A stretch of DNA of 64,000 nucleotides from Escherichia coli (lineage in GTDB: Bacteria > Pseudomonadota > Gammaproteobacteria > Enterobacterales > Enterobacteriaceae). Every line of letters begins with the position of its first letter. Position 1 is the first letter of the stretch. The stretch lies in assembly GCF_003790525.1 (NCBI RefSeq), contig NZ_CP033635.1. The stretch is one strand, 5' to 3'. Position numbers: made by a program. Positions 6,785 to 12,700 of this stretch are shown piece after piece.

Positions 6785-9700
6785 TAATCTCACCACTTAT
6801 GCCCGCACTCCCTTCCCCGAGTGCGGGTGTTTGCGCATAATTGACCCCTGTGCCTGAACTTACCACCTGGGTGAGTTCAGGTTTATTTCACTTCTTCCGT
6901 GACATTTTCATGTTCTTGCGGTCTAACACGAAGTGTTTTTAACGTCATTTAGACTGACCGACAACGGGCAGTTTTTTATTACCAGGATAGTTGATCAGGG
7001 GTTCACATGCAGGGCACAAAAATTCGACTTTTAGCGGGCGGTTTGCTGATGATGGCCACTGCTGGCTATGTGCAGGCAGATGCGCTCCAGCCTGATCCAG
7101 CATGGCAACAGGGGACGCTTTCCAACGGTTTACAGTGGCAAGTGCTGACTACACCCCAGCGTCCCAGCGATCGTGTTGAAATTCGCCTGCTGGTTAATAC
7201 CGGTTCGCTCGCCGAAAGTACACAACAGAGCGGTTACAGTCACGCCATCCCTCGTATTGCGCTAACGCAAAGCGGTGGCCTTGACGCAGCGCAGGCGCGT
7301 TCATTGTGGCAGCAGGGGATCGACCCTAAACGCCCGATGCCGCCGGTAATTGTCTCTTATGACACCACGCTGTTTAACCTGAGTTTGCCCAATAACCGTA
7401 ACGACTTGCTGAAAGAAGCGCTCTCTTATCTGGCAAATGCCACTGGCAAACTGACTATCACGCCAGAAACCATCAACCACGCGCTGCAAAGTCAGGACAT
7501 GGTGGCAACCTGGCCTGCCGATACTAAAGAGGGCTGGTGGCGTTATCGTCTGAAAGGATCAACCTTGTTAGGTCACGATCCTGCCGATCCGCTGAAACAA
7601 CCCGTTGAAGCGGAAAAGATTAAAGATTTCTATCAGAAATGGTACACCCCGGATGCAATGACGCTGCTGGTGGTGGGAAACGTGGATGCGCGCTCGGTCG
7701 TCGACCAAATCAATAAAACGTTTGGCGAACTGAAAGGCAAACGTGAAACACCGGCTCCGGTGCCGACGCTTTCTCCGCTGCGTGCGGAAGCGGTGAGTAT
7801 TATGACCGACGCGGTGCGTCAGGACCGGTTATCTATCATGTGGGATACGCCGTGGCAGCCGATTCGTGAATCAGCCGCACTGCTGCGCTACTGGCGTGCG
7901 GACCTGGCCCGTGAGGCGCTGTTCTGGCACGTTCAGCAAGCGTTAAGCGCCAGTAACAACAAAGAAATCGGTCTTGGATTTGATTGCCGTGTGCTGTATC
8001 TGCGTGCGCAGTGTGCCATCAACATCGAATCACCAAACGACAAGCTGAACAGCAACCTTAATCTGGTGGCGCGTGAACTGGCAAAGGTTCGCGATAAAGG
8101 TCTGCCGGAAGAAGAGTTCAATGCGTTAGTGGCGCAAAAGAAACTGGAGCTGCAGAAACTGTTTGCCGCCTATGCGCGAGCTGATACCGATATTCTGATG
8201 GGGCAGCGGATGCGTTCGTTGCAAAATCAGGTCGTCGATATCGCGCCGGAGCAATATCAGAAACTGCGTCAGGATTTCCTTAACAGCCTGACGGTGGAGA
8301 TGTTAAATCAGGATCTGCGTCAGCAGTTGTCGAATGATATGGCGTTAATACTGCTGCAGCCGAAAGGCGAGCCGGAATTTAACATGAAAGCGTTGCAGGC
8401 GGCCTGGGATCAAATCATGGCCCCATCGACTGCGGCTGCCGCCACATCTGTCGCCACGGATGACGTACATCCTGAAGTGACGGATATTCCACCCGCACAG
8501 TGATAAATAACCCGGCAGCGTTTCTTCTGCGCTGCCGGGATTAACGGTAATTAATAAGTTACCGTGATATACCCGCAGAGATTTTTCCCGGCACGGCGGT
8601 AGCGTGCAGATAATTACTGACTGCTGTGGTTTATAGAAAAGGAAGTAACCACACTTTGTGAACGTAACGTGCTAAAGGAATATGAATGCGCTACAAAGTC
8701 ACACTGTTCTTGCTGACTATGATTCTCTGCTTAACAGGGTTCTATTCCTGCAACAAGAACTTCCTCTTACTCTGGGATGCCAATAATATGTATGTCAGCA
8801 CAAGAAATAATATCGATAAAGACAAGGTAAAAATAGAATTCGGTATCAGCGTCAACACGATCAACCGAGAGACGGATGCCGAATTATTTACTGACAGAGC
8901 GAAGTATAGAATTATCTTCGATGGTAACCTAAAAAACAGGATGATAAATGAGTACGGCGAAAATGATTTTTTAATTACCTACGATGACCGCTGCTATTTA
9001 TCATTTCGTCAATTTAAAACCAATCGTCGTCATCAACATGACTATTATTTTGACTTCTTTAACAACAATGGGAATGTCTTTGTCACAGTCGAAATCAAAG
9101 GCGAGAACCCACTTAAATTTACGCGTAGTTTAAATGATATGCGTCAGCAGTTTTCACCAACTCGTGAGGATAGCCCTTCTCACTCCTGCAAGGTTATTTC
9201 TTCAGATCCTTCTTAAACACTGGATCTGGACAATCACGACCAAAATGCGCAGACCAGTCAAAAACTTTACCGTTTTTCACGTAGCGTTGATAAATTAATG
9301 CACCGGTTTCTGTATCACGATATCTGACCCAACTTGCAGCATGGCATAACACGGCAGCCCAAGCCTGGGTTTTAGGGTGAAGTAAATCGGCAGATTGTCC
9401 GGCCCATTCCGCAGCCTGCCAGCGGTAATGCAAAAAATGATCATCAGCGGTGGGGATTGCATGGCGAATACGTTGTTTTTCTTTACGACTTATCCACTGA
9501 TCGTTATTTCTGTATTCAAAGAGTGCTGAATACTGCCCACTGGAAATAGCATTATCGGGATACATTTCATAAGCCACCAATTCGATACCACTGAAACGTA
9601 AAAGCCGCGCAGCTTCGTATTGCGCCTGGGCGCGTTGTTTATCAGGGATATTTTTATTTTTTGCTATCGCCATTAAATCAGCCAGTTTTTGTGCGGCCTG

Positions 9701-12700
9701 GCGATGATCGGGAATATCAAACCAATTGATGGCCTGCTGATACTGACCATTACGTATTAATCGTCTACCTAATAGTGCACGTAATTTAACATCCGTGGGA
9801 ATGATATCTGGCGAAATATAATAACCGTAACTGCTCTTGTTTAAATCTATAGGTTTTAAAGGATGCTGAGGTGCTGGTACGTTTTTTTCAACAAACGCGT
9901 GTAACTCTGACAAGGTCAAAACGTTTTCTGCCACCCAGGCTAAATCAGCCCAATAGAGATCTTTGGCCTGGTAAAATAATGCGGTGGCCTGAAGATAATC
10001 ATCGCGTTTTAATGCCACAATCGCCTGTTCACTGGCAATACGGCAAGACGGGATGGTAACTTTATCGGCATGATAATAAGGGCTTTCCGGGTCCATACTT
10101 CCCCAGACTTCATCGGTAGAGAACAGCGGGGCTGCGCGAGCATAGTGACGCGTTGCCAGTGGAATATCTCCGGCTCGTAATGCCATTTTTGCTTTTAACC
10201 ATTCGCTTAATCCACTTTCTGGCGCATCCTGCAACAGCGTTTGTGCTAACGAATAATTTCCTGCCCGATACGCCAGTGCTGCCAGGCGATCGCTATAACT
10301 AAATCCTTTAACTCTGTGTTGACTTAGCAACTTAATTAAACGGTCGCGATGCGTTGGACAGGTATAATCTACAAGGTCCTTAGTACAGGCTTCGCTAACA
10401 TACCCCCAGTCATGACGAATAAAGAGCTCTGCGATTACCAGTTGCTGAACCAGAGAATCATTAATAACCGACTCCAGCAGTGGTAAATTTTTCTCCCTGG
10501 TTATATACAGCGAAATCATCCGTAGCGACGCTTTCCCGGAGGGCGAACCCTGGGCCGCTTGCCGGGCATACATTTTTACTGCCGCAGCGACATCACCTTT
10601 TTTCAGATAATAATGCCCAATCTGACCGAGACTGGCGAGAGAGAGCAATTCAGGATCGGCTGCTCCATTACGCACTTCTTCAATGATTTGCTGATAACGC
10701 TGTATGGCCTGCTCAGCAAGTTCCTGATTAAAGCCGCCTTTATTGATTATAAGATCGAGATTGTCGTCAGTGGCATCAAATCCCCCCCTTGCCAGACTAT
10801 ATAGCGTAGCAAGACGCCATTCCCCTTGCTCTGTTTTCGGCAAGGCTAATAATTGCTGAAAGTAAGGGCTATCGTATTTTCCCTGATGAAAATCCTTAGC
10901 TCCTGAATAATAAAGCCTCTGCGCCTTAGATAATGGCTTCTGCAATTTTTGCGTGATTTCCAGTATCCGATTTTGCGCAGGAGGCTCAGCATCATCATCT
11001 GTATTTGCCTGCGTTGCCTCCGCGGGCGTATCTTCATGCCATATCGGTAAATCAGGATCGCGTTTAGCCAACTGTTGTACTTCAAAGACAAAACTGCCAT
11101 TTGGCATTTCCAGCAGTGCGCTATTGCGGTCAGTTAACAGATGGTTAGGAATAAATGGTCCACAGGCATTAACGTTGGCGCTAATTAGTGAGAGAAATAC
11201 AATAACGGAAAGCCGCGATATTTTAGGGGATAACATTAAACTCTCCTTGAATTTTTTGATTGCAGCGCGCCCATCCCAGCGGACTGCTTTCTCCGGCGCG
11301 TAGTTGCCTGGCGCTTCCTCTCACAAAATTCAGGCTGGATGGTCCAGGTTGCACCTGATAGTGGCTGGCTCCATCAGCGAATAGACAATCTGCATTGGAC
11401 ATAATTATTTGTTTTGGCAATGGCGCATCAATTACGCCGCTGTTTTTAAAGGCCAGATCAAAAAGTTGCTTGTCTGCATGTTGAGTAATTATTAACGACC
11501 AGCGCGGAGTCAGCGGTTGATGTTGAATCACAGCTTCAAGCGTTGTCAGGGACCAGGCGCGGCGATCGCCTGCTAATGGTAGCCGAAACCATACCAACCC
11601 CTGTAATCCATGCGGTGGTTGCTGTTCTAAATATTGAATGAAATCGGCAATTGTTTGCGGCGACACACTTAATTCACGCATCTCTTCGGCAACGTATAAC
11701 GGAGCTTCACTCTCGACGCGATTATCACTGGTGAGCGCAGAACCGTAAGCGGGCAATGCGATGAAAAAAGGATGCGTGGTTTGTCTGGCATATTGCTTTA
11801 CCCAACGCTGCGCCAGACTGGCATCTAACAGGCCTTTTTCGGGCGATAGCACGTTATGTACCTGCAAAACCGAAGTGTCCGCAATCCGCAATAATCGGGC
11901 GAGATGTGGTGATTCAAGCCAGGTAGGCAGGACGGTAATGCTAAGTTTTATATTTGTAGGAAGTGCCTGATGTAACGTACTAAGTAGGGTCAGATAGTCC
12001 GGCAATTTTGCTGTTGGCGCGTCATAATCAATTTCTACCCCTACCAGCGTAATACCAGCTTTTTGCCACTCACGTAGGGTTTGTTGAATATGCTGGATAA
12101 TTTGCTGGTTATTAAGCCGTGTAAGCTGACCTTCGAGTCGCGCGACCAGCCAGACCGGGCGACCATCTTGCTTAATAAGTGAAGTATTAACCGTAAAGTG
12201 TCGGATGCCTTCTTGCGGGTGAAATTGCATCCCGAGTACGCGAAGCGTAGAGAAAAGCGGGCGGCTTCGTTTGAGTGCCTCGTTATGTTCTGCCGTCCAG
12301 ACGCGTTGCCAGATATAGACTTGCTGATCAAAGCGAAGCGGTTGTGAAGGGGTAAATAAAATATGCAGCCCGTAGCCCAGGCAGATCAGAAGAAGTGAAG
12401 CTGCAAAAATCCTTTTGCAAGATGGCATATTGTTACGGAATTACGATTATCAACAAGCTGATAGTATACCGACGAAACTATTAACGGAGAACGAATATCT
12501 ACCCGTTCTCCGTCAAAAACCATTACGCAGGCATCGCTTCACGCGGGATAATCGCGCCGCGATACTGAATAACGGTACTTGCGGTCAGGTGCCCGCGTTT
12601 CGCTGCGTCTTCCGCACTGCCGCCCGTCAAACGTACCGCCAGATAACCGGCACTGAAAGAGTCGCCAGCTGCGGTGGTATCGATCACTTTTTCTTTCGGC

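Follow-up and report, generated by a model that had tools for sequence, protein, structure and literature searches.

What does a 680-residue exported protein, carried in RefSeq as a hypothetical protein, do in the envelope of the Escherichia coli that encodes it? Its gene lies in a 64,000-nucleotide stretch of contig NZ_CP033635.1 (assembly GCF_003790525.1), referred to here as the window, and a first-pass annotation had described the product as an exported helical-repeat protein, perhaps a lipoprotein, that works beside a membrane enzyme. We propose that it is the solenoid subunit of a glycosidase complex of the envelope that acts on a glycan containing N-acetylglucosamine (GlcNAc), and we put the probability of this reading as a whole at roughly one half. 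The gene in question is the following.

9194..11236, minus strand: coding sequence of the 680-residue exported solenoid protein (WP_000950830.1), resembling tetratricopeptide repeat (TPR) proteins, identified from the open reading frame (ORF) list, the RefSeq annotation and a family of 1,229 representatives at E<=1e-10

The ORF list and the RefSeq record confirm both this reading frame and the N-terminus quoted in the first-pass annotation. Export by a signal peptide is likewise upheld, and the processing site can be described as two features.

11165..11236, minus strand: Sec signal peptide, codons 1-24, with K5 and R8, h-region 9-19 and c-region ANVNA, from sequence, hydropathy and family statistics
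11156..11164, minus strand: Cys-Gly-Pro, codons 25-27, the predicted mature N-terminus

The h-region has a Kyte-Doolittle hydropathy of 2.65, and the site itself has valine at -3 and alanine at -1, which is of the Ala-x-Ala type; the basic n-region, hydrophobic core, polar c-region and small residues at -3 and -1 of a Sec signal peptide are thus all present. In an alignment of 31 relatives A24, C25 and G26 are invariant and P27 nearly so, and the c-regions are polar, often with proline or glycine at -4 to -6. Cys25 is kept in 98% of 187 full-length relatives. A Cys-Gly pair occurs within the first 80 residues of 173 of these (median position of the cysteine, 25); because the 173 were selected by this pair, the presence of Gly26 in 173/173 is no independent count. 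Pro27 follows in 162/173. Position -1 is alanine in 162/173 members and alanine, glycine or serine in 169/173. Position -3 is A in 92, S in 28, G in 18, V in 17, T in 6 and L in 6, so that A/S/G/V cover 155/173 and A/S/G/V/T cover 161/173. Position -2 is occupied by many residues (L37, Q19, W17, Y16, R13, I12, H10, V8, N7, F7, D6, E6, S6, A5, P2, M2), with W/R/H/N/D/E/P/M in 63/173.

An Ala-x-Ala motif marks a signal peptidase I site and a lipobox marks a lipoprotein site, and the residue profile over -3, -2 and -1 corresponds to the former, not the latter. The invariant cysteine at +1 that a lipoprotein needs is in place, but the lipobox is not: VNAC breaks the PROSITE rule (PS51257) with asparagine at -2 and -4, the strict box [LVI][ASTVI][GAS]C fits 1/173 relatives, and a permissive PROSITE-like rule fits 65/173. 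The same operons supply an internal control, as the DUF3142 partner protein of Pseudomonas carries the canonical lipoboxes LAGC, LSGC, LNGC and LTGC. These observations speak against the lipoprotein suggested by the first-pass annotation. The 680-residue protein is probably not a lipoprotein, and its mature form likely starts with a free Cys-Gly-Pro left by signal peptidase I.

The remainder of the chain was modeled as an all-alpha, TPR-like solenoid with a predicted local distance difference test (pLDDT) score of 81.5, which remains all-alpha through the C-terminus and has no beta-barrel domain.

9272..10978, minus strand: all-alpha solenoid of TPR-like helical hairpins, residues about 87-655

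The tandem helix-turn-helix hairpins by which the TPR superfamily is recognized are present in the model, and a fold search with it returned local TPR matches only (BamD, YbgF/CpoB, LapB and PilF); the overall architecture of the predicted solenoid is without a solved counterpart. At the sequence level, there is no significant match to Pfam, NCBIfam or PADLOC models. The best Pfam match is TPR_7 (E 0.63), at most 2 of 31 relatives reach E<=0.001 for any single TPR profile, and the family profile gives weak TPR matches (E>=0.08) against PDB sequences. Sel1 (PF08238) is unlisted in the Pfam scans of the protein and of the 31 relatives. Thus, where a TPR- or Sel1-like body had been suggested, the TPR-like part stands by fold, with marginal sequence matches, and the Sel1 part is dropped. 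That the first reading recognized no family is likewise upheld: no name, Pfam model or solved structure was found for the family, nor any functional study of it in the literature searched.

The family is nevertheless large. In clusters at 50% identity it numbers 1,598 at E<=1e-3, 1,229 at E<=1e-10 and 457 at E<=1e-30, and a relative detectable by one single peptide pattern is encoded in 326/100,044 species genomes. Matches with named organisms in the AlphaFold Database (AFDB) come from alpha-, beta- and gamma-Proteobacteria, Myxococcota and Tectimicrobiota and bear no labels other than "tetratricopeptide repeat protein" or "uncharacterized". Within Escherichia, close relatives are carried by E. 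fergusonii, E. marmotae and further lineages. An alignment-based repeat of the protein-database search recovered essentially the same 57 proteins, without domain fusions. Several solenoid motifs are near-invariant, namely YWxDxAxVAERVLTxDEL (428-445), LRxLLxRR (485-492), ExxPD (557-561) and HYR (603-605), and fifteen charged residues are invariant (D194, K350, E403, D431, E437, E444, R486, R491, R495, R547, E557, D561, R589, H603 and R605). The plasmid search gave one match only, on a 508-kb Xanthomonas replicon, and the module is therefore not generally carried on plasmids. On that replicon (X. sacchari NZ_CP010410.1; locus L088, 1-8136) the order is a TonB-dependent receptor, a 557-residue TPR protein, DUF3142 and the family member, an arrangement that hints at glycan uptake in that lineage.

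The first-pass annotation had paired the protein with a 401-residue membrane enzyme, and the co-occurrence check agrees: a DUF3142 gene is the immediate upstream neighbor, in the same orientation, in 77/79 assessable species loci (80 were fetched, and one starts at a contig end).

11223..12428, minus strand: partner gene, encoding a 401-residue DUF3142 protein with a transmembrane helix at residues 2-24, a GH18-like (beta/alpha)8 barrel and a C-terminal beta-sandwich
11223..11248, minus strand: gene junction, with the Shine-Dalgarno sequence AAGGAG (11243-11248) within the end of the DUF3142 gene and the ATG of the solenoid gene at 11234-11236

On the minus strand of the window the order is kdgK, the 401-residue gene and the 680-residue gene. 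The latter two share 14 nt (11223-11236), and six nt separate AAGGAG from the ATG, an arrangement that, as judged from the sequence, is typical of translational coupling. The remotest relatives checked, from alpha-proteobacterial and other metagenome-assembled genomes (MAGs) and 26-30% identical, also have DUF3142 directly upstream; two of these (26-28%) share the 14-nt overlap and a third (30%) has a 13-nt gap. Clustering of neighboring ORFs over the 80 species loci, with 3 further distant loci, showed no third family conserved across genera. The surroundings change with the lineage: by eye, we take the neighbors in Serratia to be livJ on one side and rpoH-ftsX on the other, those in Pseudomonas to be LysR, GST, LysE and Lrp genes, and those in other lineages to be tgt/queA, cysG, or mpl and pgsA. 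Hafnia paralvei (locus L008, 6902-8959) has an intact solo solenoid gene with no DUF3142 beside it, presumably between guaA and hemL. In AFDB, a 1,101-residue protein named "DUF3142 domain-containing" (A0A8S0H9A0) can be superposed on the solenoid model across 683 aligned columns with a TM-score of 0.81 and may be a natural DUF3142-solenoid fusion, as judged from its name and the models. A 901-residue relative (A0A964VQ79) bears the name "LysM peptidoglycan-binding domain-containing".

The partner matches DUF3142 (PF11340) over residues 88-285 with an E of 1.1e-75, and its model (pLDDT 88.9) contains a (beta/alpha)8 barrel of the GH18 type, followed by a beta-sandwich with invariant C348 and C389. 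Its strand-4 motif E132-x-D134-x-D136 (codons 12021-12035) is invariant and reads G-V-E132-I-D134-Y-D136. An aspartate thus replaces the canonical GH18 acid glutamate, and the D-x-D is common to TfeC (Q-I-D-F-D). There is no GH18 Pfam match for the partner at E<=10. The barrel resembles those of SleL (4s3j) and a Bacteroides thetaiotaomicron chitinase (3fnd), at identities of only 12-14%; relative to these, the canonical DxDxE reads ExDxD and Pfam assigns DUF3142. The family profile also matches PDB entries 8y6t and 9vtv by sequence (E 1.7e-11). These are TfeC of Yersinia pseudotuberculosis, a relative of the partner (21% identity) and not of the 680-residue protein, and a chitinase by PDB title. 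The literature searched held no relevant paper under the codes 8Y6T and 9VTV; in two reviews that cite Zhu et al., Nat Microbiol 2026 (PMC13162877, PMC13008689), TfeC is described as an antifungal chitinase delivered by the type VI secretion system T6SS4. It differs from the partner in its length of 262 residues, in its delivery by a type VI secretion system, and in a PDB chain without signal peptide, membrane anchor or C-terminal beta-sandwich.

The way in which the two proteins are anchored suggests that they belong together. A hydrophobic C-terminal helix followed by a tail rich in arginine and lysine is found in 119/187 family members and is missing from the enterobacterial branch. The last 40 or so residues of non-enterobacterial members (P0036-P0048 and others) are mostly a transmembrane helix with a tail of the RRRK type, often preceded by LRPYK, and an informal look at these tails showed no clear PEP-CTERM or GlyGly-type sorting motif. 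Anchors were paired locus by locus in 66 classifiable loci. In 46/66 the DUF3142 protein has a lipobox-type signal and the solenoid ends in a transmembrane helix; of these loci, 36 were scored by script and 10 reclassified by eye where a regular expression or hydropathy threshold had missed an evident lipobox or helix. The other 20/66, from Enterobacterales and Iodobacter, combine a hydrophobic N-terminus without a lipobox on the DUF3142 protein with no transmembrane helix on the solenoid. The anchor is therefore swapped: in Escherichia and Serratia it is a hydrophobic N-terminus on the enzyme, and the solenoid lacks one. The hydrophobic anchor usually comes from one partner or the other, as expected of a complex at the periplasmic face of the inner membrane, and such complementary anchors fit a complex that is held there.

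We suggest the following course of events. The 680-residue protein would be exported by the Sec pathway, probably cleaved by signal peptidase I after Ala24, and folded in the periplasm as a long TPR-like alpha-solenoid. There it would serve as the dedicated partner of the DUF3142 enzyme with its GH18 chitinase-like barrel, encoded just upstream, and the two proteins would probably assemble into a complex on the periplasmic side of the inner membrane. This complex would be tethered by the N-terminal transmembrane helix of the enzyme in E. coli and by the C-terminal transmembrane helix of the solenoid in Pseudomonas and most other lineages, where the enzyme would be a lipoprotein. Most likely the solenoid would be a scaffold that binds substrate for the glycosidase or regulates it. 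A GlcNAc-containing glycan of the envelope would be the substrate, with peptidoglycan strands as the leading candidate and chitin-like oligomers as the alternative. Peptidoglycan leads because the partner resembles SleL and Cwp19 in structure, because a gene that we take by eye to be mpl, the peptidoglycan-recycling ligase, lies just upstream in two Moraxellaceae MAGs (L041 and L072), because a gene that looks PBP1C-like to us lies just upstream of the pair in one gammaproteobacterial MAG (L078), and because of the LysM name. Even so, peptidoglycan strands are a tentative choice, and one somewhat on the unlikely side.

Several observations weigh against the proposed complex. Klebsiella and Phytobacter show no obvious membrane anchor on either partner, and their enzyme seems to have a cleavable signal. 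The solenoid gene stands alone in H. paralvei and in one Rhodanobacteraceae MAG. The canonical GH18 motif DxDxE (DxxDxDxE) is not kept in the partner, the type of signal cleavage is judged from residue statistics, and the hints at peptidoglycan are anecdotal. The invariant charged residues, together with the invariant cysteine, could point to a catalytic rather than a scaffolding role. In the literature searched there was no functional study of DUF3142, the term being met only in one unrelated paper, and no interaction, enzyme activity or phenotype reported for the pair.

The same data can be read in other ways. If Lgt and LspA process the atypical box after all, the 680-residue protein would be a true lipoprotein, acylated on Cys25, carried to the outer membrane by the Gly+2 rule and scaffolding the enzyme from there, much as NlpI, a TPR lipoprotein, does with peptidoglycan hydrolases. 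In 98% of relatives a cysteine occupies precisely the +1 position that follows the hydrophobic region, and lipidation is the commonest known reason for such an invariant cysteine; 76/187 members have no conserved cysteine with which Cys25 could pair, so a disulfide fails to explain the invariance. Alanine, glycine or serine at -1 would also suit a lipoprotein, and lipidation would provide the Klebsiella and Phytobacter pairs with an anchor where no other is visible. Against this stand the asparagines at -2 and -4, the poor fit of both the strict and the permissive box, the scarcity of leucine at -3 (6/173), the residues W/R/H/N/D/E/P/M at -2, and polar c-regions with proline or glycine at -4 to -6, which are typical of signal peptidase I substrates; moreover, the partner enzyme of the same operons uses canonical lipoboxes, and most members already have a C-terminal transmembrane anchor. 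We regard the lipoprotein as unlikely. The likeness to NlpI and LpoA would lie instead in an envelope TPR protein that docks or regulates a cell-wall-active enzyme. NlpI and LpoA, at about 30-70 kDa, are genuine lipoproteins and share no overlapping operon with their enzyme; the 680-residue protein differs from them in failing the lipobox test and has no sequence relationship to either. A repeat scaffold would not usually have so many invariant charged residues or the H603-Y604-R605 motif. Together with a Cys25 that is invariant at the predicted mature N-terminus and has no conserved partner in about 40% of members, they would suit a solenoid that is itself catalytic or chemically active, its N-terminal 1,2-aminothiol serving as a nucleophile, a metal ligand or a point of covalent attachment to glycan or partner; the solenoid would in that case be an enzyme or a cofactor subunit and no passive scaffold. 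However, the N-terminal 29 residues are of low confidence in the model, no active-site geometry is visible and no precedent was found, and we consider this highly improbable.

The other alternatives keep the scaffold and change its setting. The first-pass annotation had placed such proteins in envelope or polysaccharide machinery, and the TPR fold recalls the periplasmic scaffolds of exopolysaccharide secretion (PelB, BcsC, PgaA and AlgK); DUF3142 would then trim the polymer as PelA, BcsZ or PgaB do, with the synthase encoded elsewhere. Pfam labels place a glycosyltransferase, methyltransferase and acyltransferase cluster upstream in about 20 Pseudomonas loci, the E. coli pair lies a few genes downstream of pdeK (yhjK), which we take to adjoin the bcs cellulose operon in K-12 gene order, and one source names one relative "cellulose synthase operon protein C". 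Yet such scaffolds are encoded in an operon with a synthase and have a fused or partnered porin, and the present module has neither: from genus to genus, nothing accompanies the pair consistently, be it a synthase, an outer-membrane barrel or any other gene, and the protein itself has no beta-barrel domain. It is instead a self-contained two-gene unit in unrelated genomic contexts, whose solenoid carries an invariant N-terminal cysteine and, in most lineages, a C-terminal transmembrane anchor with a basic tail that presumably sits in the inner membrane. The position near bcs is specific to Escherichia, with other sites in Serratia and Hafnia. A polysaccharide scaffold in the usual sense is thus poorly matched by the locus, and we give it a slim chance. 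A use of chitin or chito-oligosaccharides, or an antifungal activity by analogy with TfeC, would have the solenoid bind imported or external chitin fragments. The chitinase TfeC is a DUF3142 member, the bacteria in which the pair is common (Serratia, fluorescent Pseudomonas, Klebsiella, Hafnia and Xanthomonadales) live in association with soil, plants and insects, and the X. sacchari pair has its TonB-dependent receptor gene upstream. But neither protein looks secreted, as both appear to be anchored within the envelope; the pair shows no recurrent association with chitoporin, nag or chb genes or with a secretion system of any kind, and TfeC is a short, signal-less type VI effector at the distance given above; this, too, we hold to be very unlikely.

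With the envelope-tethered solenoid and glycosidase as the favored arrangement, the invariance of Cys25 still calls for a reason. Across the 187 relatives, C25 is kept in 98%, C398 in 57%, C631 in 97% and C669 in 96%. All four cysteines are present in 104/187 members, C25, C631 and C669 in 72/187, and C25 alone in 4/187, which are full-length and have lost C631 and C669 together; the other 7/187 are truncated gene calls or have a shifted C-terminal cysteine.

9230..9346, minus strand: Cys631-Cys669 segment, a co-varying pair with codons at 9344-9346 (Cys631) and 9230-9232 (Cys669)

C631 and C669 are jointly absent from six members that keep Cys25, four of them full-length and two of them C-terminally truncated calls, which are uninformative. 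From this co-variation, Cys631 and Cys669 probably form a disulfide. An intramolecular disulfide was rejected as the general cause of the invariance of Cys25, because Cys398 is present in 57% only and because C631 and C669 can be lost while Cys25 stays; in 76/187 members (about 40%) Cys25 has no conserved partner cysteine. The model gives pLDDT values below 50 at residues 1-10 and 12-29, spanning Cys25, and hence provides no geometry for it. Lipidation in spite of the unusual box, an intermolecular bond, binding of a metal or a reaction of the N-terminal aminothiol could each be the reason. It is quite improbable, though worth stating, that the chemistry of the N-terminal cysteine is indispensable, its free aminothiol acting as nucleophile, metal ligand or covalent link, in an inner-membrane-tethered, GH18-like glycosidase-solenoid machine of more than 300 species that works on peptidoglycan or another GlcNAc polymer. 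If true, this would extend the known uses of processed N-terminal cysteines beyond lipoproteins and N-terminal nucleophile hydrolases. An invariant N-terminal cysteine behind a signal without a lipobox poses in any case a clean biochemical question that is quickly testable.

In E. coli, the pair is a rare accessory cassette at a variable spot, as its G+C content relative to the flanks, its rarity and its clean insertion all imply.

9194..12479, minus strand: two-gene segment of 3,286 bp, holding both genes and 51 nt upstream and nothing else, from BLAST and junction alignment against locus L085

The two genes have a G+C content of 0.454 and 0.487, compared with 0.54 for flanking yhjJ and 0.56 for kdgK. 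The full-length insertion occurs in 30/5,426 complete E. coli genomes, and where nearly all E. coli have about 377 bp from the end of yhjJ into kdgK, this strain has 4,301 bp. Bases 8400-12700 match E. coli SMS-3-5 (NC_010498.1) at 100%. The segment is missing from the haplotype of the same gap in E. coli 2021CK-01784, and alignment of the junctions with that haplotype showed no direct repeats at the borders of the insertion. A promoter and terminator scan of the insertion found sites no more numerous than in shuffled sequence. A reading of the pair as a defense system was rejected, since neither gene had a PADLOC match above chance level.

The yhjJ-kdgK gap itself is a variable hotspot (8504-12522 in the window; 808-3036 of L085, NZ_CP104371.1), with three genes in SMS-3-5, five small hypothetical genes in 2021CK-01784 and almost nothing in most E. 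coli. Its third gene here is a 176-residue ORF on the plus strand (8686-9216; G+C 0.38) with a lipoprotein-like N-terminus, LCLTGFYSC, which converges on the solenoid gene and shares 23 nt with the 3' end of that gene; searches of Pfam and NCBIfam gave no match for it. A copy with 84% identity adjoins kdgK in the different insertion of 2021CK-01784, so the ORF is independent of the DUF3142-solenoid pair. Two further stretches have a low G+C content, 0.371 at 34001-36000 and 0.331 at 48001-50000, where the window averages 0.494, which suggests that other segments were acquired as well.

The direct importance of the module for E. coli is small because it is a rare accessory insertion, and nothing in the pair overturns current understanding. 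The theme of a periplasmic TPR scaffold with a glycoside hydrolase is already known; what distinguishes this case is the autonomous two-gene module, the anchor swap and the invariant N-terminal cysteine, predicted to be exposed by processing. If our reading is true, Proteobacteria (Serratia, Klebsiella and fluorescent Pseudomonas among them) would have in their envelope a DUF3142 glycosidase complex with the solenoid as its non-catalytic subunit, and the sole characterized DUF3142 protein, an antifungal chitinase of a type VI secretion system, would be joined by a larger, housekeeping-type branch that acts in the envelope of its own producer. More than 1,000 sequence clusters that are now labeled "hypothetical" or "tetratricopeptide repeat protein" would then gain a partner, a location and a likely job.

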